Below are positions 43,809-53,316 of a stretch of 64,000 bases of DNA, piece by piece. Source of the stretch: an uncultured Bacteroidales bacterium (GTDB lineage: Bacteria; Bacteroidota; Bacteroidia; Bacteroidales; JALTDM01); contig CAYQWX010000003.1 in the NCBI GenBank assembly GCA_964421355.1, forward strand, positions 2,534 through 66,533. Reading direction: 5' to 3'. How positions within the stretch are numbered: the stretch's first letter is position 1; each line of letters opens with the position of its first letter. The translations under genes were made by a program, and so were the position numbers. Under the pieces are notes generated by a model. The model was given only the letters and a program-made list of their open reading frames with translations. It did not search any database and was not told where the DNA came from.

Positions 43809-44282
43809 TTACCAATTCTTATTTCTCTTACGAGCAGAGTAATTTATTTTAAGAGCATTTACTTTTCTCAATTCCTGCTTAACATCGGTAACTATACCCA
43901 TTTTTGTATCCTCATCTACTTTTAAAGAAGTAGTCATAAGAGGAATCATTTTTTCATTTCTTGCTTCGCGTTCTTTAATTATAAATTGAGGAACATCCTT
44001 CACTTCAGCAAAAGCATCATTTAATTGTATTCTTGGTTCAGTTCCGAATACTTTTTGGAAACGCGCTTGTGGCTTTCCTATGTAAATATAACTTACCAAT
44101 GATTTTTTTTCCAATTTTTGCAACTCTGTTGCTTTTGGTAATTTTACAATAATCTTAAGTTCCACTTCTCGCATAACGGTAGTTACCATAAAGAAAAACA
44201 ACAACATAAATATTATATCAGGCAAAGATGCTGTTGATATAGCAGGCACTTCTCTATCTTTATCTTTTTTGAATAATGACAT
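43809..44282 (-). CDS. exbD: ExbD/TolR-family biopolymer transport protein
   Basis: 157 aa. Single N-terminal TM segment LPDIIFMLLFFFMVTT followed by an ExbD-like periplasmic domain. Confidence 0.8.
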   Translation of the reverse strand: MSLFKKDKDREVPAISTASLPDIIFMLLFFFMVTTVMREVELKIIVKLPKATELQKLEKKSLVSYIYIGKPQARFQKVFGTEPRIQLNDAFAEVKDVPQFIIKEREARNEKMIPLMTTSLKVDEDTKMGIVTDVKQELRKVNALKINYSARKRNKNW

Positions 44283-44283
44283 T

Positions 44284-44859
44284 TTACTTTCCTCCTACAT
44301 TTTTAGGTTCTGCTTCTGATATTCTTTGCGGATAAATCTTCTTTATAGCTTTTTTTTGATCTTCAGGCAAATCGTTATAGTGTTTTCCAAACTTTTTCAT
44401 AGCCAATTCATCTCTTAACTCATTGTAAGCCGCTACCAACTCATTTTGAACAGCTATATACATTTTATAACTTGTTCCCCTATCATTCTGCAATGATATA
44501 ACTTGCTTGGATACGGGATAATTGCCAAAATATGGTATATTCATTATTTTCTTTTCAGGCAAATTAGATTTATTATAAGGATTAGCAATAAATTCTTTTG
44601 CTTTATCTTTTAATTGATGAATATCCAACGGCTCTCCTTCTACCAATAACTGGTCTTTACTATTTACCAATACTATAAATACATTTCTTTCTTTAATTGG
44701 AGGTGTTTTTTCTTGATTAGGCGGAGGTGGAGGTGGCAATTTCCTTACCAATCCCGTATCTACATCCATTGTGGTAGTTACCAAGAAAAATATCAATAAC
44801 AAAAATGCTATATCTGCTGTTGAACTTGCATTTACTTCAGGAACTTTTCTCTTTGCCAT
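44284..44859 (-). CDS. exbD: ExbD/TolR-family biopolymer transport protein (long form with Pro-rich linker)
   Basis: 191 aa. TM segment ADIAFLLLIFFLVTT followed by KLPPPPPPNQEKTPP. Confidence 0.8.
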   Translation of the reverse strand: MAKRKVPEVNASSTADIAFLLLIFFLVTTTMDVDTGLVRKLPPPPPPNQEKTPPIKERNVFIVLVNSKDQLLVEGEPLDIHQLKDKAKEFIANPYNKSNLPEKKIMNIPYFGNYPVSKQVISLQNDRGTSYKMYIAVQNELVAAYNELRDELAMKKFGKHYNDLPEDQKKAIKKIYPQRISEAEPKNVGGK

Positions 44860-44882
44860 ATTACAATGTATTTTAATAAATA

Positions 44883-44910
44883 GGAAAGAAGGCTAACAAC
44901 CTTCTTTTCC
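44883..44910 (-). promoter_or_regulatory. intra-operon hairpin between the 4-TM gene and the first exbD
   Basis: GGAAAGAAGG / CCTTCTTTTCC stem (10 bp with a 1-nt bulge) and a 7-nt loop. On the transcribed strand it is followed by TATTTATT. Confidence 0.4.
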
Positions 44911-44926
44911 CTATTCATTATTATAT

Positions 44927-45340
44927 TTATTTCAAACTATTATAAATCTCCGTAACAATTATTGATGTTATGGCTAACAAAAACAAAATATAAGTAGTAA
45001 TCAAACCTGTCCCCACTGCTTTTTGCATACTTGGAGTATTATCAGGACCACTATATCCTACCATATGCATTACTTGGTCAGATGCCAAAGCATACGCTAT
45101 CAAAACAATAACCGCCATAATTCCCAAACCGATAAAAGTATTTACGGCACCTTTGGGATTAGTTATCATTTGGTATATAGGAAATCCTATTGATAATACT
45201 GCAGCTATTCCAAAATATACATAAGCCAAATCTATTAATAATTCTTCTGAGATAACTTCTGTATAAAACAGTATTCCAATAAGAGCTCCTGCCCCAAGTA
45301 ATACATATAAAAATATGGTAATTGCTTTTACAAATTTCAT
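44927..45340 (-). CDS. hypothetical 4-TM inner-membrane protein within the exbB-exbD operon
   Basis: 137 aa with four hydrophobic segments. No motif recognised. Confidence 0.55.
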   Translation of the reverse strand: MKFVKAITIFLYVLLGAGALIGILFYTEVISEELLIDLAYVYFGIAAVLSIGFPIYQMITNPKGAVNTFIGLGIMAVIVLIAYALASDQVMHMVGYSGPDNTPSMQKAVGTGLITTYILFLLAITSIIVTEIYNSLK

Positions 45341-45354
45341 AATCTTAAATTATT

Positions 45355-46215
45355 TTATTGGTTATTTTTTTGATATTTAACCATAATATCCATAAAGGAA
45401 ATAGTAGCATCTTCCATACTTGTTACCAAACTGTCAACTTTTGATAAAATATAATTGTAGAAGATTTGAAGTATAAGTGCTACAATCAACCCCGATACTG
45501 TGGTAATCAACGCAACTTTAATACCTCCTGCAACCAAAGAAGCTGACACATCACCTGCTTTTTGGATAGCATCAAATGCTTGGATCATCCCGATTACTGT
45601 TCCCATAAATCCTAACATAGGAGCAATGGCTATAAACAATGAAATCCAAGTAAGACCTCTTTCCATAAGTCCCATCTGAACGCTACCATAAGATATAATA
45701 GATTTTTCTATCATATCTAAAGTGTTGCCATCTTTATATCTCATAAGACCTTGATAATAAAGACTTGCTATAGGTCCTCGGGTGTTTCTTGCTACTTCCA
45801 ATGCAGCATCTACACCTTGATTAAATAAAGCATCTTCAAACTGTTGAATAAATTTCTTTGTATTTATTGTGGCTAAATTCAAATAAAGTATTCTTTCTAT
45901 AGCAATAGCCAAACCAAAGATAAGTGATAACAAGATAGTTGCCATAAATCCGGCACCACCTTCTATAAATTTCTTTTTGATTTGATAATGAAGACCTGAC
46001 TTTTCGGGAACGTTTGTTTCGTCTTTTTTTGCTTCATCTTTTTTTACTCCTGCAGTATCTACCTTTGCAGTATCAGTCTTTGTTGCACTGGTATCTTTTG
46101 CTACTGCCGTGGTATCTGCAGCTGCTTTAGACGAATCTACTTCTACTTCCGCAAAAACAGTGTTTACACTGATTGCCATCAATAGTACTACCAATAATTT
46201 TGTCATTTTTTTCAT
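45355..46215 (-). CDS. exbB: MotA/TolQ/ExbB proton-channel family protein
   Basis: Signal peptide plus a low-complexity K/D/T/A-rich region. Then an ExbB core with three TM segments (GFMGTVIGMIQAF, ALITTVSGLIVA). Confidence 0.85.
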   Translation of the reverse strand: MKKMTKLLVVLLMAISVNTVFAEVEVDSSKAAADTTAVAKDTSATKTDTAKVDTAGVKKDEAKKDETNVPEKSGLHYQIKKKFIEGGAGFMATILLSLIFGLAIAIERILYLNLATINTKKFIQQFEDALFNQGVDAALEVARNTRGPIASLYYQGLMRYKDGNTLDMIEKSIISYGSVQMGLMERGLTWISLFIAIAPMLGFMGTVIGMIQAFDAIQKAGDVSASLVAGGIKVALITTVSGLIVALILQIFYNYILSKVDSLVTSMEDATISFMDIMVKYQKNNQ

Positions 46216-46748: not shown

Positions 46749-47555
46749 ATGAACAATATTGATTTTTTATCTAAAAAAAATAAAAACTTTTTTTTACTTG
46801 CAGGACCTTGTGTAGTAGAAGGGGAAAAAATAACTTTTGAAATAGCAGAAACAATTGTAAAAATAACTGACAAACTAAAAATACCTTTTGTTTTCAAAGC
46901 TTCATATAAAAAAGCTAACAGAACAAAATTATCTTCTTTTAAAGGGATAGGAGACAAAGAAGCATTAACCATATTAAAAAATATAAAAAAAGAATTTTCC
47001 ATACCGATAATCACGGATATACATTCGGAAGCAGAAGCATATCTTGCAGCAGAATATGATGTGGACATTTTACAAATACCTGCTTTTTTGTCAAGACAAA
47101 CAGAATTGCTTATTGCAGCAGGTAAAACAGGAAAATATGTAAATATAAAAAAGGGACAATTTATGGCTCCTCATACTATGAATTTTGCTGCCGAAAAAGT
47201 AGCAAGCACAGGTAATGACAAGATTTTGCTAACCGAACGCGGCACATTCTTCGGGTATAATGATTTGGTAGTTGATTTCCGCTCCGTGCCTATTATGCAA
47301 AAAACAGGATATCCCGTGATAGTGGATATTACCCACTCCCTACAACAACCCAATACTACTAAAGGCGTAACAGGAGGCAACCCAGAACTGATAGAAACAA
47401 TGGGACGAGCAGCAGTGGCTGTTGGAGCTAACGGTATCTTTTTAGAAACACACCCTCAACCTGAAAAAGCGTTATCCGACGGAGCAAACATGTTACGATT
47501 AGAACTTCTGGAAGATTTATTAAAAAAATTGATAGCTATAAGGAATGTAGTATAA
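46749..47555 (+). CDS. kdsA: 3-deoxy-8-phosphooctulonate synthase
   Basis: LAGPCVVE, KASYKKANR, QIPAFLSRQT and DITHSLQ motifs. Confidence 0.9.
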   Translation: MNNIDFLSKKNKNFFLLAGPCVVEGEKITFEIAETIVKITDKLKIPFVFKASYKKANRTKLSSFKGIGDKEALTILKNIKKEFSIPIITDIHSEAEAYLAAEYDVDILQIPAFLSRQTELLIAAGKTGKYVNIKKGQFMAPHTMNFAAEKVASTGNDKILLTERGTFFGYNDLVVDFRSVPIMQKTGYPVIVDITHSLQQPNTTKGVTGGNPELIETMGRAAVAVGANGIFLETHPQPEKALSDGANMLRLELLEDLLKKLIAIRNVV

Positions 47556-47600
47556 AAAAGGAGATTAAAGAATATTTTTTTCTTCCCTAATCTCCTTTTT
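47555..47600. terminator. bidirectional terminator hairpin between convergent kdsA and chaN-like genes
   Basis: Perfect 13-bp stem AAAAAGGAGATTA / TAATCTCCTTTTT with a 20-nt loop. A/T runs flank the stem on both strands. Confidence 0.65.
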
Positions 47601-47620: not shown

Positions 47621-48505
47621 TTAATATGTAGTAGTCATATCTTCGGGAACTACTATGATATAGTCGGCTTTTGTTTGATTTTCTTTATCCAACTTTGATA
47701 CATCTTTTTGCATTACGGTAGATATTGTTTTTATGCTTACTTGTTTGTTTTGTAACTTTATATGCCATACAATACCTTGATAGTTATCAGAATGATAAGA
47801 ACCGTTGAAATGATAAAATGTTTTTCCTTTTTCCCAGTTTTTCAGGATAAAATATGCCATTGTTGCATCTTTTATAGCTTGAGCTTTGGGCAGATTTTGA
47901 TTTTTCATTGGTCCCATCATACCTTTTAAGTGTCCTCCCATATTTAGCATATTTTTGTAACATGGCAAATTGGGGTCATAATTTATAGGTAATGGTGCAA
48001 TATATTTTTTTGCCTCATTTGAAAGTTTGTTTAATGCTTCAAAACCACCTCTTGCAACCATTGCTGCATAACGGCGAGGGATATTTGTTGCAACAAAATG
48101 TATTTTATTTTTCACTGCAAAATCTAATAGTGGTTTGTAGTCGGTTTTATAATTAGGCCACAAACGGGCTTCTTCTTCAAAATCTTTTGCTCTGATTATT
48201 CCATTTTGATATTCATCAAGCATCAATTGATTATCGGCTTCAAACATTTCTGCTCCCATTATAAGTTTTTTGCCTTTTTGGGCAAAAAGTCCCTTTGCTA
48301 CTTGTAATTCTAACCAATGTGATATTGGATTGTTGTGTAATTCTCCAAAGAAAATTATATCTCCTTTGGCTACATCATTAAGCATAGTGGTATAATCTAC
48401 TTTTTCACCCTTGTTGTTAAAAATTTGATATGCAGGTTTGTCTTGTGCAAATAGTTGTATGCCTGTCCACATTACTACTAATGTTGTAAAAATAAGTTTT
48501 TTCAT
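47621..48505 (-). CDS. ChaN-family (haem/cofactor-binding, iron-regulated) periplasmic protein
   Basis: Signal peptide and a ChaN-type N-terminal motif DIIFFGELHNNPISHW. 294 aa. Confidence 0.65.
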   Translation of the reverse strand: MKKLIFTTLVVMWTGIQLFAQDKPAYQIFNNKGEKVDYTTMLNDVAKGDIIFFGELHNNPISHWLELQVAKGLFAQKGKKLIMGAEMFEADNQLMLDEYQNGIIRAKDFEEEARLWPNYKTDYKPLLDFAVKNKIHFVATNIPRRYAAMVARGGFEALNKLSNEAKKYIAPLPINYDPNLPCYKNMLNMGGHLKGMMGPMKNQNLPKAQAIKDATMAYFILKNWEKGKTFYHFNGSYHSDNYQGIVWHIKLQNKQVSIKTISTVMQKDVSKLDKENQTKADYIIVVPEDMTTTY

Positions 48506-48930
48506 AATTTTATATTTTTAACTGTTTTGAGCTTTTTTTATGAGTTTATCACCTTTTTGTCTAGCTTCATCTATTATTTGTTGAGCATTTTTATTGGCAT
48601 CTTTTTCCAGTTTATCAGCTTTGGAATTAGCATCTTTCTCTACTTTTTCAGCCTTTTTATTAGCTTCTTGTTGAAGTTTTTGAGCAGAAACTGTTGCTTT
48701 TCTTTTCTCTGCCGGATCTTTGGCTTGTTTGATTAGTTGATCTCCTTTCCGTTTTGCTTCATATCTTATTTGTTGAGCGGTTTTCTTACCTTCCGACCTT
48801 ATTTTTTCTGCTTGCCTATGTGCTTCATTATTTATTTGTTGTGCTTCCTTTTTAGCTTCTGACAATAGTCTAGATGCTTGCTTCTTAGCTCTTTGTATAG
48901 CTTCTTGTTTTTTCTTTTTGGGCTTACCTT
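48330..48930. repeat. tandem duplication, copy 1 (chaN-like 5' end + spacer + asmA-tail-like 3' part of the chimera); boundaries approximate
   Basis: Collinear with 48961-49520 at an offset of 591-592 nt. Includes an identical 29-mer, CCACATTACTACTAATGTTGTAAAAATAA, at 48467 and 49058. Confidence 0.8.
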
Positions 48931-49096
48931 TCACGTGTTGTTTTACATTTTGCACTACTTCATTGTTATATAAATTTCCCACCAATATTATCTCTCCTTT
49001 ATCTAAGTTATTAAAAATAGATACGGGCTTATCTTGTACATACAAATGAATATTTGCCCACATTACTACTAATGTTGTAAAAATAAACTTTTCCAT
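48518..49096 (-). CDS. chimeric ORF: ChaN-like leader/N-terminus fused to AsmA-like Lys/Ala/Glu-rich 11-mer-repeat tail
   Basis: Residues 1-~57 parallel the ChaN-like gene start. The last 132 residues align gap-free with the last 132 residues of the AsmA-like gene. Open frame of 192 aa, 13 nt after the asmA stop and 12 nt before the chaN start. Confidence 0.6.
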   Translation of the reverse strand: MEKFIFTTLVVMWANIHLYVQDKPVSIFNNLDKGEIILVGNLYNNEVVQNVKQHVKGKPKKKKQEAIQRAKKQASRLLSEAKKEAQQINNEAHRQAEKIRSEGKKTAQQIRYEAKRKGDQLIKQAKDPAEKRKATVSAQKLQQEANKKAEKVEKDANSKADKLEKDANKNAQQIIDEARQKGDKLIKKAQNS

Positions 49097-49520
49097 AACT
49101 TTATATTTTTCAACTGTTTTCAGCTTTTTTTATAAGTTCATTACCTTTACTTTTTGCCTCATCCACTACTTGTTTAGCACGTTTATTAGCTTCTTGTTCT
49201 AATTTATCAGCTTTGGAATTAGCTTCCTGTTCTACTTTTTTAGCTTTTTTGTCAGCTTCTTGTTGAAGTTTTTGAGCAGAAATTTCTGCTGCCTTTTTGG
49301 CTATTGGATTTTTAGCCTTTTTTACTAGTTCGTCACCCTTGCGTTTTGCTTCGTCTCTTATTTGTTTAGCCGCATTTTTACCACCTTCACGTATTTGTTG
49401 GGCTTTCTTGTGAGCTTCATTTTTTATTTGTTGTGCTTTTCTATTAGCTTCCGCTAACAATTTGGCTGCTTGCTCCTTTGCTTTTTGTATTGCTTCTTGT
49501 TTCTTTTTGTTCAATTCTTC
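48931..49520. repeat. tandem duplication, copy 2 (chaN-like-derived 5' part of the chimera + spacer + true asmA 3' end); boundaries approximate
   Basis: See copy 1. The copy contains a ~42-nt deletion relative to the chaN-like 5' region. Confidence 0.8.
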
Positions 49521-51983
49521 TTTTACTTTATCTTTTACTTGCTGCTGTATGCTTTCCTGATTATCTCCCTGTCCACCCAACAATGCTTTATATTTAGGTT
49601 TATCCAATGTGCCTTGAATAAGAGTTTTTACTTTTATAGTATTTCCGATATTTGCATTTATTCCTTGTTTTGACAATTGGGACGCAAGTTTATTCATCAC
49701 TGACACAGCTGCCGAACCAAGAGCGTTTTTAGGCATATCCCATTCAATAGTGTAATTTAATTTACCATCTACATACTGTTCTCCTGATGCGTGGGCTTTT
49801 ATGTTTCCCACGCTAAAATCAAAAGGGTCAAAACTGATTTTTCCATTTTCTATTTTTATTGTGAGATTAGTATTTTGTGTTTTTATTTCTTTAAATTTAT
49901 CCGTCTTGAAAAATGAATTCATAAATTTGAATAGTCCATTTTCTTTTAATACAAAGTTTTTAGTTTGAATATTACCAAGTCCGTTCATGGTTTCCATTTT
50001 GGGACTCATATCTTGCAACAAACCTGTTTCTATTTCCATCTTACCATAAATCTGTCCTGAAGCATTTTTCAATAATGGTGCCACTTTTTGCAAAGTTTCT
50101 ATTGAGGAATATGTTTTATTTAAATCTAATTTATTTATTTTTAAAGAGTATTTTACGAAAGGATTAGACATATCCATTGTGCTATATTTTCCCGTCATTA
50201 CAATATTGCCACCAAATATATCCATAGATAAATTTTGTAATGTTGCTTCTCCGTTTTTTATTATTATTTTTCCTTTTAGGTTTTCTATCTTGTATTTGTC
50301 GTAATATAGTTTTTTGATGTCTGAATTTAATGTAAAATCGATATTTTTTGGTACTTCTATTATTTCCAGTGCAGAAGTATCTGTTTGTTGTTGTGTTGTT
50401 GTATCTTCCGTTGTTTCTTCTCCAGTAAGCCACATATTAGCATCTATCAAATTAGAAGAAAGATTGAAAGTTCCTTTGAGCAAACTATCTTTGAAATAAT
50501 ACTGTAGCACATTGAATATTTGACCATTAGCTGATATATCCGAGTTTCCTGCTTTTGCATAAAAATCTTTAAGCAACATTGCCTTTGGTGAAAATTCAAA
50601 TAACATATTTTTTATTTCCATTGGCACAGGCTCATCCGAAGATTTATAAATCATATTGGTAATTTTCAAAGAACCCTCTGCATAAAAGTTATCATATTGT
50701 TCATTTTCTATAGAAGACATTTTTCCTTTCATAGAAACATCGGCATCTATTATTCCCGATAAGTCGGTACTATCAAGTGGAATTGCTTTTTTCAATGAAG
50801 TAAGGTCTAAATGTGTCTTTAAGAATGCATCTATATACGGATCTACCATTACATTGGAAGTAACAAGGCGTGCATCTACAGGATTACCTGCAATTTCAAG
50901 GTGGAACTTGGAAAGATTTACTATTGTTTTATTTAAGTCGATACTATCCTTGTTATGTATATTTAATGCCAAATTTATGTTCTTTATATCCTCTGGTAAA
51001 TCAGGATACTTGATATACCCGTTGTTCACATTCAAATCCATATCATATGCAGGCATTAAACTATCATTGTATGTTCCGTTTAATTCCATATCAAAATCAA
51101 AATTCCCTTTTACCGTAACATTTTCGTATCCTGACATATAAATGCTTGGCACAAGAGACATCAATTTTTTGAAATTTCCTTTTGAAGTTATCTTTAAATT
51201 CATCAATATGTCATCTGTAGGCATCGCTATATATCCGTTCATTGTAACAGGTAAGTCGTTTATTAAAAGTTTGTTGTCTTCAAACACATATTTACTACTA
51301 TCCAAATCGGCAGATATTTTTGCCGTAAAATCAGCTTTTGCCTTTTTGAGATAATCAACACCTTCGTAATTAAATGTAAGTGAAGCTACTTTCATTGCCA
51401 TATTCATAATAGCATTTGATGAAGAAAAATCCCCTGTTAAATCAAAAGATAATCCTTTGATTTGGCTGCTCATATCGCCTTCGTAATCAAAATATGATAT
51501 ATCAGCATCTGTTATGTTTAATTTTTGCAAGTGCATTACCATAGAAGCACCACTTGTGGTATCCGTATCATCTTCAGTAGCAGTAGTATCTTCCTTAGCA
51601 ATATCCCAATTAGCCTTACCATTTTTTAATACAATGGCTTTGATTACAGGGTGTTCTACAGAAATCGAATTAATTTGTATTTTGTCTCCTAATACACTCG
51701 TCAAATCTATATCCAATGCAAGCTTGTCAAAACTTGCAAGTGTATCGTTTTTGAAAGTATCTACTCCTACCACAGATAAATCTTTTATATAAAATGTTAG
51801 GTCGGGAAAGCTGTGAAAAATGGTAAGATCAAATTTACCAAAGTTTACTTTTGCATTTACATTTTTATTTATCTCTTCTTTGGCAATTTTTACTATTTTA
51901 CCTTTGAATATAAATGGTATGGATATTATTACCAAAAGGAATAATATAAAAACAATTACTATCCATTTAATTATTTTTTTCAT
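49110..51983 (-). CDS. AsmA-family outer-membrane biogenesis/lipid-transfer protein with C-terminal 11-mer-repeat tail
   Basis: N-terminal TM anchor, a long beta-rich AsmA-like body (957 aa), and a C-terminal 132-aa K/A/E/Q-rich tail. Confidence 0.75.
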   Translation of the reverse strand: MKKIIKWIVIVFILFLLVIISIPFIFKGKIVKIAKEEINKNVNAKVNFGKFDLTIFHSFPDLTFYIKDLSVVGVDTFKNDTLASFDKLALDIDLTSVLGDKIQINSISVEHPVIKAIVLKNGKANWDIAKEDTTATEDDTDTTSGASMVMHLQKLNITDADISYFDYEGDMSSQIKGLSFDLTGDFSSSNAIMNMAMKVASLTFNYEGVDYLKKAKADFTAKISADLDSSKYVFEDNKLLINDLPVTMNGYIAMPTDDILMNLKITSKGNFKKLMSLVPSIYMSGYENVTVKGNFDFDMELNGTYNDSLMPAYDMDLNVNNGYIKYPDLPEDIKNINLALNIHNKDSIDLNKTIVNLSKFHLEIAGNPVDARLVTSNVMVDPYIDAFLKTHLDLTSLKKAIPLDSTDLSGIIDADVSMKGKMSSIENEQYDNFYAEGSLKITNMIYKSSDEPVPMEIKNMLFEFSPKAMLLKDFYAKAGNSDISANGQIFNVLQYYFKDSLLKGTFNLSSNLIDANMWLTGEETTEDTTTQQQTDTSALEIIEVPKNIDFTLNSDIKKLYYDKYKIENLKGKIIIKNGEATLQNLSMDIFGGNIVMTGKYSTMDMSNPFVKYSLKINKLDLNKTYSSIETLQKVAPLLKNASGQIYGKMEIETGLLQDMSPKMETMNGLGNIQTKNFVLKENGLFKFMNSFFKTDKFKEIKTQNTNLTIKIENGKISFDPFDFSVGNIKAHASGEQYVDGKLNYTIEWDMPKNALGSAAVSVMNKLASQLSKQGINANIGNTIKVKTLIQGTLDKPKYKALLGGQGDNQESIQQQVKDKVKEELNKKKQEAIQKAKEQAAKLLAEANRKAQQIKNEAHKKAQQIREGGKNAAKQIRDEAKRKGDELVKKAKNPIAKKAAEISAQKLQQEADKKAKKVEQEANSKADKLEQEANKRAKQVVDEAKSKGNELIKKAENS

Positions 51984-52050: not shown

Positions 52051-53316
52051 TTAATGGGCTAACCATAATTCTGGATTAACTTTCTTTAGTCCGTCCCATA
52101 TCTGCAATTCTATTTCTGTTTTTTGCTTTTCATCGTCGGTATATACTTCGCCTATTGTTTGTTTTGTTTTCACTTTGTCTCCTTCTTTTACAAAGACTTT
52201 TGCAAGATTACCATAAACAGAATAATAATTCCCGTGTTTAATCAACACTATTTTGTGCTTACCAGGTACTTCAAATATTTTCCGCACTTCCCCATCAAAT
52301 ATTGCTCTTGCTTTAGCTCCATGTACTGTAGATATATATATTCCGTTATTATTTACCTTTATACCTTTTAATACAGCATGTTCGTGAGTTCCAAATCTAC
52401 CTGTAATTATACCTTTTGCCACAGGCCAAGGTAATTTCCCCTTGTTTTGTTCAAATTTGCCAGAAATAATTTTTTCTTCTGGAGTTAGATAATATGTCGG
52501 AGATTTTTTACCTGTACTTGTTTTGCCTCTATTTTTAGATTTTGCATTTCTCTTTGCAGCTTCGCGTCTTGCCCTTTCTCTGGCTTTTCTTGCCTCTTCC
52601 TCAATAAGTTGTGCAACTCTATGTTTTAGTTGTTCGGCAGCTTTTTGTTGTTTTTTAAGTTTTGCAAGCAAGTCTTTCTCTTTTTGTTGCAAATGTTCTA
52701 TTGTTTGTTTCTTTTCTTTTTTACTTTGGACAAGTCCTTGTTGTTCTGTTTCAAGTTTTTTCAAAACATTTTGGCGTTGGGTACGTTTTTGTTCAAGTTC
52801 CAAAGACCTTTGTTCCAATTCTTTTTTTATTGCTTGTATTGCTTCTACTTGTTTTTTTCTATAATCGGATATTTGTTGCAAATATTTAACCCGCATAAAA
52901 GCTTGATTAAATGAATTTGCCGCAAGCACATACATTATTTGCTCATAGGGAGATGAGTTTTTCCAAGCAAAATAAATTAATCTGGCATATTGTTCTCTTA
53001 TGGTTTTTAGATCTTCTTCCAAAGAGTTTATAATCCATTCATTTTCAGAAATTTTATTATCAATCTGAGTTAATTCTTTTTTTAGTTCTTCAATTAATTC
53101 TTGACGAAGTTCTATCTGTCTATTTATAAGTACTAATTTATTGTATGTTTGTTTTTTTTGTTGTTTTGTTTGAGATAATAGTTTTTTAGTAAGTTTAAGT
53201 TCTCTTTCATATTTTTTTATTCTTCTTTCAAGTGTTTTACGACTTTGCGAGAAAGATGGTAAACTTAAAATTATTATGAATGTAAATATTATGTAAAACT
53301 TTTTATGCAACAACAT
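52051..53316 (-). CDS. M23/LytM-domain protein with long coiled coil (EnvC-like murein hydrolase activator)
   Basis: Signal peptide, ~250 aa of K/E/Q-rich coiled coil, and a C-terminal LytM-like domain (GIYISTVHGAKARAIFDGEV...IKHGNYYSVYGNL). Confidence 0.75.
   Translation of the reverse strand: MLLHKKFYIIFTFIIILSLPSFSQSRKTLERRIKKYERELKLTKKLLSQTKQQKKQTYNKLVLINRQIELRQELIEELKKELTQIDNKISENEWIINSLEEDLKTIREQYARLIYFAWKNSSPYEQIMYVLAANSFNQAFMRVKYLQQISDYRKKQVEAIQAIKKELEQRSLELEQKRTQRQNVLKKLETEQQGLVQSKKEKKQTIEHLQQKEKDLLAKLKKQQKAAEQLKHRVAQLIEEEARKARERARREAAKRNAKSKNRGKTSTGKKSPTYYLTPEEKIISGKFEQNKGKLPWPVAKGIITGRFGTHEHAVLKGIKVNNNGIYISTVHGAKARAIFDGEVRKIFEVPGKHKIVLIKHGNYYSVYGNLAKVFVKEGDKVKTKQTIGEVYTDDEKQKTEIELQIWDGLKKVNPELWLAH

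Follow-up and report, generated by a model that had tools for sequence, protein, structure and literature searches.

INTRODUCTION

Tandem duplications in bacterial genomes are usually regarded as short-lived, and the chimeric genes that arise at the joins are known chiefly from laboratory observations, of which sigH in Staphylococcus aureus is an example. In Drosophila populations, tandem duplications that ignore gene boundaries are said to form chimeric genes, most of them young and still segregating. In S. aureus, tandem duplications with short junctions yield nusG'-'sigH and rplK'-'sigH chimeras (PMC3486894), and one duplication of ~1.2 kb leaves sigH and nusG intact while generating an expressed nusG'-'sigH fusion via the start signals of the downstream gene (PMC3486894). 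Here, we analyze a gene of comparable build in a 64,000-nucleotide (nt) stretch of DNA, hereafter the window, from an uncultured Bacteroidales bacterium (GenBank assembly GCA_964421355.1, contig CAYQWX010000003.1, positions 2,534 to 66,533). The gene encodes 192 amino acids (aa) and lies between a gene for an AsmA-like protein (asmA) and a gene for a ChaN-like protein (chaN); its 5' end resembles the start of chaN and the remainder resembles the 3' end of asmA. An earlier note, made from the letters of the window, had attributed this gene to a diverged tandem duplication of ~590 bp across the asmA-3'/chaN-5' junction and had suggested that the fusion is maintained rather than decaying.

The AsmA-like proteins, to which the product of the first parent gene belongs, are bridge-type lipid transporters that include TamB, YhdP, YdbH, and AsmA, with seven AsmA-like members in Flavobacterium johnsoniae (PMC12045153). 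The C-terminal end of these proteins, the part from which the chimera draws most of its length, acts in the periplasm, near outer-membrane partners (PMC12045153).

RESULTS

A duplicated gene junction with both parents intact

The gene order along the minus strand, on which all three genes lie, is asmA, the 192-aa open reading frame (ORF), and chaN. The first parent (49110 to 51983; 957 aa) was taken from the ORF list and identified by its AsmA/DUF748 matches in Pfam, located at the N terminus of the protein (PF05170, E = 1.3e-11); it is of full length relative to its homologs. The second parent (47621 to 48505; 294 aa, starting MKKLIFTTLVVMWTGIQLFAQDKP) encodes a ChaN/Tiki-family protein of the haem-binding type with a full match to PF04187 (ChaN, Tiki superfamily; E = 5e-61). 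Both are thus intact on either side of the chimeric gene (48518 to 49096), itself an intact ORF, which starts MEKFIFTTLVVMWANIHLYVQDKP. The 13-nt spacer between the asmA stop codon and the ATG of the chimera (49097 to 49109, minus strand) is A-rich, of the AAAAATATAAAGTT type, and almost identical to its duplicate, the 12-nt spacer between the stop codon of the chimera and the ATG of chaN (48506 to 48517, minus strand).

The collinear repeat expected from a duplication is present in a self-comparison of the region: a repeat finder returned direct repeats that start 591 and 592 nt apart, and local alignment paired positions 49509 to 49007 with 48920 to 48413, the copies being ~77% identical. 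Copy 1 (~48962 to 49553, minus strand) contains the end of asmA (codons ~811 to 957 and the stop codon), the spacer of 13 nt, and the first 45 codons of the chimera, and copy 2 (~48329 to 48961, minus strand) contains the remainder of the chimera (codons 46 to 192 and the stop codon), the spacer of 12 nt, and the first 59 codons of chaN. The whole duplication therefore covers ~48329 to 49553, for an original unit of ~630 nt, or 210 codons. Its outer boundary at asmA codon ~811/812 was placed from the in-register alignment and is good to ~10 nt.

The head of the chimera (codons 1 to 45; 48962 to 49096, minus strand) derives from chaN codons 1 to 59 and consists of a signal-peptide-like segment (residues 1 to 21) followed by a degraded ChaN fragment. 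Its alignment with chaN has gaps of 3, 12, and 27 nt, each length being divisible by three, and the head is 14 codons shorter; the ChaN motif FGELHNN has become VGNLYNN. The tail (codons 47 to 192; 48521 to 48958, minus strand) derives from asmA codons 812 to 957 and runs in gapless register with them from about codon 47 to the stop codon, over ~146 aa. Its last 132 residues align without gaps to the end of AsmA with 88/132 aa and 304/396 nt identical, and the 14 codons N-terminal to this match contribute 19/30 identical nt in their best stretch. The novel join itself (approximately 48956 to 48964, minus strand) sets chaN codon ~59 in frame with asmA codon ~811/812. The surrounding sequence is highly diverged, and the sole shared candidate at the join is the AAT of chaN N59 and asmA N808. 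Peptides unique to the chimera include ATVSAQK, DPAEK, and GEIILVGNLYNNEVVQNVK.

Two exact runs of 29 nt stand out between the copies, one in the signal-peptide core (49058 to 49086 and 48467 to 48495; P = 0.001) and one in the tail, where it encodes SAQKLQQEA (49254 to 49282 and 48662 to 48690; P = 0.013), as assessed by permutation within codon positions. These runs are possible traces of short gene-conversion tracts between the copies or of a local constraint at the nucleotide level.

All of the checked details and numbers that the earlier note had read from the sequence are reproduced here, namely, the mirroring of the chaN start by the head, the hand count of 88/132, the offsets of 591 nt between start codons and 592 nt between stop codons, the identical 29-mer at 48467/49058 (to which we add the second run), the 14-codon deficit, and the altered motif. 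Its summary of the product as a leader peptide plus a tail is accurate. The duplication across the asmA-3'/chaN-5' junction also stands, with its size revised from ~590 to ~630 bp and the asmA-derived part probably extended from 132 to ~146 aa.

An independent ENA assembly (L081) has the three genes in the same arrangement and is 99.77% identical to the window over 10.3 kb. The 22 single-nucleotide polymorphisms (SNPs) between the two all fall outside the chimera, which has none among three near-identical assemblies. The identical chimera protein is annotated as a gene on an independent ENA contig, and a Logan contig (L082) spans chaN and the 3' end of the chimera. Because the copies differ by ~23% and an independent assembly carries the same genes, an assembly artifact is excluded. 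Nor is the likeness of the copies due to chance.

The chimera arose from asmA and chaN in this lineage

An AsmA query run against 5.8 billion proteins yielded 1,872 homologs. Among the best 120, which were inspected (P0001 to P0120), nearly all are 930 to 980 aa long and reach the end of the query (100% coverage). The tail is present on >100 AsmA homologs across the Bacteroidota, including relatives that are only 36 to 40% identical, and since so many homologs carry it, it is an old part of this AsmA subfamily.

We compared synteny in the four closest relatives for which contigs were fetched (L083 to L086), whose AsmA proteins are 59 to 65% identical to that of the window. In 4/4, chaN directly follows asmA with a spacer of 12 to 18 nt and no 192-aa gene in between, in agreement with the adjacency that the earlier note had proposed as a check, and all other neighbors of the asmA-chaN pair differ. 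Downstream of chaN, the relatives have a RidA-like gene, followed in 3/4 by an M17 peptidase gene, and the window has a convergent kdsA. The adjacency of asmA and chaN is thus conserved in five genomes, the window included, despite the AsmA identity of 59 to 65%, which hints at a functional link between the parent genes; at more distant ChaN loci, asmA is missing. A GTDB scan with ChaN, combined with tblastn of the asmA body and tails at 80 loci, recovered ChaN relatives of 51 to 69% identity in which asmA is not adjacent to chaN, and these loci are therefore unusable for synteny; in the one with the most similar ChaN (L001, 69%), only noncoding DNA lies upstream of chaN.

When the chimera was used as the query of an exhaustive HMMER search in 1.84 billion representative proteins, 286 matches were obtained, the best of which are AsmA C termini or C-terminal AsmA fragments. 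No stand-alone protein made of a signal peptide and a hairpin is among these 286 matches, so the wide occurrence of the 192-aa gene away from asmA and chaN, which would speak against a local origin, was not found in this library. A scan of JGI metagenomes with the chimera also found no relative. A word-indexed protein search gave no match and is uninformative, as the exact chimera sequence is absent from that collection.

The head and the synonymous sites place the event in time. Over its first 24 codons, the chimera matches the chaN gene of the window at 56/72 nt and 17/24 aa, compared with 25 to 36/72 nt and 2 to 5/24 aa for five orthologous chaN genes (those of the four relatives and of L001), and the signal peptide stretch IFTTLVVMW is shared by the chimera and the chaN of the window and occurs in none of these five. 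Amino acid identity in the tail is uninformative on origin, as the parent shares 92 to 93/132 residues with its orthologs and 88/132 with the chimera. The proportion of synonymous differences (pS), on the other hand, is 0.505 between the copies versus 0.66 to 0.85, that is, saturated, for orthologous pairs. At identical residues, the fraction of identical codons is 0.73 between the copies versus 0.44 to 0.61 for orthologous pairs, for an expectation of 0.51 at saturation. The synonymous sites and the lineage's own signal peptide therefore place the duplication in this lineage, after the lineage had separated from the relatives sampled here. The event is old all the same, as the Nei-Gojobori synonymous divergence (dS) between the copies is 0.84. 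Base composition is uniform across the region. Together, synteny, the >100 tailed AsmA homologs, the lineage-specific signal peptide, and the synonymous codons make it very probable that the chimera originated locally by duplication of the asmA-3'/chaN-5' junction, as the earlier note had proposed.

The product is predicted to be a helical hairpin behind a signal peptide

An AlphaFold2 model of the full AsmA protein (alignment of 49 sequences, mean predicted local distance difference test [pLDDT] of 80) contains a membrane helix (residues 2 to 41), a beta-rich body extending to about residue 802, a low-confidence linker (803 to 820), and a C-terminal hairpin of two helices (811 to 888 and 893 to 956). 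The asmA breakpoint falls inside the linker that precedes the hairpin, and the complete hairpin module was therefore copied into the chimera. The model of the chimera correspondingly shows helices at residues 58 to 124 and 128 to 191 with pLDDT >95, residues 1 to 57 being unstructured, and predicts an antiparallel hairpin for the tail. Hydrophobic residues and Ala recur in the tail with a periodicity of ~3.6 to 3.75.

Across this Bacteroidota AsmA subfamily (window positions 49110 to 49553 and P0001 to P0120), the C terminus is a conserved module of ~145 residues, rich in Lys, Ala, and Glu, behind a flexible linker. It bears the turn motif G/K-NP-[IV]-AK-x-AA and an internal periodicity of 33 nt (11 residues). 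We found no description of a function for this hairpin module in the AsmA-like protein literature that we compared.

The chimera has no AsmA or DUF748 match in Pfam, and its model contains neither a membrane anchor followed by a beta-taco groove nor anything beyond the helical hairpin. It has no PF04187 match either, as ~24 post-signal residues, with the motif VGNLYNN, are left of a ChaN domain of ~210 residues. Because the defining domains are absent, the chimera is a member of neither the AsmA nor the ChaN family. A match to DivIVA (PF05103) scores 28.7 bits for a cut-off of 28 and covers only 36 residues (156 to 191) of the Lys/Ala/Glu-rich helix. Every NCBIfam match, among them those of the ATP synthase b and Scy coiled-coil families, falls far short of its cut-off. 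We rejected membership in the DivIVA, ATP synthase b, and Scy families and attribute these similarities to coiled-coil composition. A Foldseek comparison of the hairpin with the PDB returned only generic helical hairpins, none of them significant (best E = 0.06, TM score of 0.3 to 0.4).

Export and expression signals

The hydrophobic core FIFTTLVVMWA of the chimera has a mean Kyte-Doolittle hydropathy of 2.15 over 11 residues, compared with 2.02 in ChaN. ChaN and its five orthologs have typical Bacteroidota signal peptides that end in [FL]A before a Gln. In the chimera, the sequence HLYV precedes QDKP and in ChaN LFA does, so that the Gln at position +1 and the QDKP sequence are kept; a Gln right after the cleavage site corresponds to the Q-rule of Bacteroidetes (PMC5837995). 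Export of the chimera across the inner membrane is thus plausible from its sequence. Two changes leave both export and cleavage uncertain: the residue at position -1 is Val in the chimera versus Ala in 6/6 ChaN proteins, and the N terminus is MEK (net charge of 0) versus MKK/MKR in ChaN, with the loss of one positive charge. Because of the Val at position -1, cleavage is doubtful, and the product may be tethered by its signal anchor. The likely product is a free hairpin, either exported or membrane anchored.

Directly before the chimera ATG lies an almost exact copy of the spacer that precedes chaN, and the chimera has therefore probably inherited the translation start of chaN. The three genes look like a single transcription unit, given the spacers of 12 to 13 nt, the lack of any terminator-like site on the coding strand between them, and an inverted repeat after chaN. 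This repeat (47555 to 47600, 18-nt arms, 89% complementary, located by the repeat finder) lies between the convergent chaN and kdsA genes and is likely a bidirectional terminator that closes the asmA-chimera-chaN unit. A scan for promoter and terminator consensus sequences gave counts no higher than in shuffled sequences; it used sigma-70 hexamers, which are not the Bacteroidota promoter type.

Signatures of selection on the chimera

Between the copies, the pairwise ratio of nonsynonymous to synonymous rates (dN/dS, or omega) is 0.22 for the tail (bootstrap interval of 0.12 to 0.37), below the value near 1 that would contradict maintenance, and 0.14 for the signal-peptide codons; an omega of 1 was rejected in all pairwise models. 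As the outgroups are saturated, synonymous changes cannot be polarized, and branch codon models are unstable. The absolute omegas of a six-taxon F3x4 branch model were discarded because branch lengths reached their upper bound, a consequence of saturated synonymous sites and extreme composition, and only the direction of its contrasts was kept. Unconstrained three-taxon models, the outcome of which depended on the codon-frequency model, were replaced by clock-constrained ones, in which both paralog branches share one synonymous length. We consider this assumption reasonable because the copies share the same age, genome, strand, and operon. Under this constraint, the omega of the chimera is 0.32 to 0.42 with equal codon frequencies (Fequal) and 0.06 to 0.10 with F3x4/F1x4. 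An omega of 1 was rejected in 12/12 runs (p from 2e-3 to 2e-14), and the omega of the chimera was significantly higher than that of the parent tail in 9/12.

About 6% of single substitutions in the Lys/Glu/Gln-rich tail yield stop codons. In simulations, the frame of 146 codons stays open with a probability of 0.06 to 0.07 when random placement is limited to the chimera's portion of the differences observed; at the neutral rate that follows from dS, this probability is 0.003. Measured against 113 AsmA tails, the chimera retains 10/11 of the columns that are at least 85% conserved and 23/28 of those that are at least 70% conserved, mostly in the Ala core. Half of the chimera-specific changes (15/30) are conservative, of the K>R, E>D, or A>S type.

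Several points weaken the case for maintenance. When changes are polarized with the four orthologs, the chimera has 30 specific amino acid changes and the parent 11 over 146 residues (p = 0.004); three-point estimates of dN are 0.10 to 0.12 for the chimera branch and 0.065 to 0.085 for the parent branch, and the chimera thus evolves ~2 to 3 times faster than the parent copy at the protein level. The hairpin turn is rewritten, reading AKDPAEKRKA in the chimera versus AKNP[IV]AKKAA in 5/5 AsmA proteins (AKNPIAKKAA in that of the window), and it concentrates 8 chimera-specific changes in 16 residues versus 22 in 130 elsewhere (Fisher p = 0.005). The unconstrained three-taxon model with equal codon frequencies gives the chimera an omega of 0.7 to 4.9, not different from 1, and the frequency-aware codon models (F3x4 or F61) run to the bounds with saturated synonymous lengths that make absolute omegas unreliable. 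Finally, the chimera is known from one species-level lineage, without sequence variation among the three near-identical assemblies.

If a single synonymous rate applies to both paralogs, dN/dS for the tail of the chimera amounts to 0.3 to 0.4 or lower, which would reject neutrality and indicate that constraint is relaxed about twofold; without the equal-rate assumption, one codon model is compatible with neutrality. On balance, functional maintenance by selection seems to us rather probable. The suggestion of the earlier note that the fusion is maintained rather than decaying is thus supported, if less firmly than the local origin, by the pairwise dN/dS of 0.22, by the clock-constrained omegas below 1, and by a frame that would be unlikely to stay open neutrally, and it is weakened by the unconstrained model and by the two- to threefold acceleration. 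Our reading is that the hairpin structure is under purifying selection and that its tip has been either freed from an AsmA-specific constraint or re-specified.

The parent tail deserves a remark of its own. In the equal-frequency model, the omega of the asmA branch is ~0.17 to 0.23, compared with ~0.13 to 0.15 for the outgroup branch, and the dN/dS of the L084/L085 pair is ~0.03. The AsmA tail of the window (49110 to 49508) thus seems to have sped up after the duplication, with an uncertainty that comes from saturation, and such an acceleration could reflect partial redundancy with the chimera.

Gene neighborhood

The SNPs that separate the window from L081 are strongly clustered, with 12 in 208 nt of exbB (45583 to 45790) and 7 in 91 nt of kdsA (47361 to 47451), 4 of the latter being common to L082. 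These clusters look like short recombination tracts between strains of one species. The exbB gene belongs to an ExbB/ExbD-type cluster located just downstream on the same strand (43809 to 46215), which is composed of a MotA_ExbB gene, a gene for a 137-aa membrane protein, and two ExbD-like genes; the MotA_ExbB protein has a long N-terminal extension rich in Thr, Ala, Lys, and Asp. Upstream of asmA, the product of an M23 peptidase gene (52051 to 53316) has a long coiled-coil region at its N terminus, with an abundance of Lys, Glu, and Gln, making this peptidase a second envelope protein of the neighborhood with a charged helical extension.

DISCUSSION

In the lineage studied here, a junction between two adjacent genes was duplicated, and the join left an intact frame that reads from the start of chaN into the end of asmA. 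The direction of the event is given by the tailed AsmA homologs, the ancestral arrangement by the relatives, and the rate of nonsynonymous change between the copies is reduced. The explanation that we favor combines this origin with maintenance of the gene and export of its hairpin, and taken as a whole, we hold it to be probable and well short of certain.

The most serious competitor is that the chimera is a nonfunctional relic of an old duplication, slowly decaying, with a frame left open by luck or by inherited codon composition. A relic would account for a ChaN part so degraded that it cannot fold as ChaN, for the two- to threefold faster protein change, for the loss of the conserved turn motif, and for the failure of the searches to find the gene in any other genome. 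It would also agree with the unconstrained Fequal branch model, which allows an omega of 1, and the 0.06 to 0.07 probability of an open frame, obtained under the most lenient null, is not decisive alone. A decaying sequence does not, however, predict the rejection of neutrality in all clock-constrained runs and all pairwise models, an open frame that has a probability of ~0.003 at the dS-implied neutral rate, length changes that are all in frame, or the preservation of the Ala-rich core columns. In bacteria, a perfect tandem repeat of 630 bp is normally lost quickly by recombination, and survival of this one to 23% divergence suggests that it was retained for a reason. We therefore regard the relic as unlikely, while taking it seriously.

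Selection might instead act on the frame for the sake of chaN: translational coupling or the avoidance of polarity would keep it open for chaN expression, the protein itself being functionless. The gene spacing of only 12 to 13 nt, the lack of a coding-strand terminator-like site between the genes, and a pre-chaN spacer duplicated almost unchanged fit this proposal, which would explain at once the open frame, the fast amino acid change, and the rewritten turn. However, selection against stop codons alone predicts a missense dN/dS near 1, and the clock-constrained estimate is 0.3 to 0.4 or lower; conservative replacements make up half of the changes, and the Ala positions of the core are preserved. 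Moreover, plain deletion of the duplicate would serve chaN equally well. This proposal appears to us quite improbable.

The low dN/dS could also have been inherited if the second copy had been imported, already diverged, from a moderately distant asmA-chaN relative by illegitimate or unequal recombination. Strain-level recombination tracts do occur nearby, in exbB and kdsA, and an import would need no selection on the chimera to produce a dN/dS below 1. What makes it very improbable is that the head carries the lineage-specific signal peptide (IFTTLVVMW), absent from the five other ChaN genes compared, that base composition is uniform across the region, and that the excess of chimera-specific amino acid changes, the 14-codon loss, and the destroyed ChaN motif amount to substantial evolution after the fusion. 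In addition, no donor was found in the GTDB scan, the search of 5.8 billion proteins, or the JGI metagenome scan. The reversed direction, in which a small secreted hairpin gene was ancestral and AsmA gained its tail by fusion, has bare similarity in its favor and is effectively refuted by a tail carried on 930- to 980-aa AsmA proteins across the Bacteroidota down to 36 to 40% identity, by four nearest relatives without the small gene, and by short matches in the representative library that are all C-terminal AsmA fragments.

Returning to the explanation that we favor, we propose the following course of events. In the ancestor of the lineage, asmA would have stood directly before chaN. A segment of ~630 bp, from the linker before the AsmA hairpin (codon ~811) to chaN codon ~59, would then have been tandemly duplicated, leaving both parents intact, as every duplication of this short-junction type does, and fusing the 5' end of chaN in frame to the 3' end of asmA at the join. 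The chaN part would have supplied the spacer, the start codon, and the signal peptide, and the asmA part the complete hairpin module. Divergence of the copies to ~77% identity would have stabilized the duplication against recombinational loss, as the useless ChaN fragment shrank by 14 codons, always in frame. Meanwhile, the hairpin would have been kept under purifying selection relaxed about twofold, with mostly conservative surface changes apart from the remodeled turn. The gene is presumably cotranscribed with asmA and chaN, and its product would cross the inner membrane by means of the ChaN-derived signal, to be released or left anchored. This would place the AsmA hairpin, as a copy detached from AsmA, in the periplasm, where the C terminus of AsmA itself works; there, it could bind the contacts of the AsmA tail, compete for them, or supplement them.

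A more specific version is tentative, and we put it forward as a possibility: a hairpin set free from AsmA, provided with the export signal of a periplasmic neighbor, and kept by selection in the periplasm, free or tethered to the inner membrane, with a re-specified tip through which it would act in trans, its target being either the AsmA system or a new partner. In that case, the chimera could modulate the contact of the AsmA tail on the outer periplasmic side or compete for it. If it does act in trans, the locus would represent a dated and mechanistically transparent case of bacterial gene birth and a natural dissection of the uncharacterized function of the AsmA tail.

The type of event, a chimera created by a short-junction duplication, is already known. 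The present case contributes a bacterial example from nature that is fixed and strongly diverged; its breakpoint coincides with a domain boundary, the neighboring gene donated an export signal, and both parents as well as the ancestral arrangement can still be compared. It offers a clean teaching case of operon neighbors spawning a new, predicted secreted protein and flags the hairpin tail of the Bacteroidota AsmA proteins as a separable module. The signal of selection depends on an equal-rate assumption that is reasonable and unproven, and it comes from one uncultured lineage.

Compared with described proteins, the tail of the chimera is alike in overall shape to the receptor-binding domain of colicins E3/E2 and to the cytoplasmic domains of chemoreceptors, the top Foldseek matches; as none is significant, this is a resemblance of shape and not of common descent or function. 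The parent AsmA resembles the described AsmA-like transporters in its inner-membrane anchor, its beta-rich periplasmic body, and a C terminus directed toward the outer membrane. The chimera differs from them in that it has no beta-taco body and retains only the C-terminal hairpin, an appendage typical of this Bacteroidota subfamily.

As to its formation, the chimera shares with the Drosophila cases the same general route from a boundary-crossing duplication to a chimeric ORF; those are eukaryotic, without operon context and without the donation of a signal peptide. The likeness to S. aureus is closer, with an identical topology: a duplication of ~1 kb or less crosses the border between two neighboring genes, both parents are intact, and the join leads in frame from the start signals and 5' codons of the downstream gene into the 3' part of the upstream one. 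The S. aureus chimeras, however, are spontaneous and reversible laboratory variants with identical copies, and the fusion protein was shown to be made, whereas the present gene is known from sequence and the microhomology at its junction is no longer readable. It is in turn fixed in a natural lineage, old (pS of ~0.5, 23% divergence), and trimmed in frame, and the downstream gene has donated to it not just translation signals but an export signal as well.

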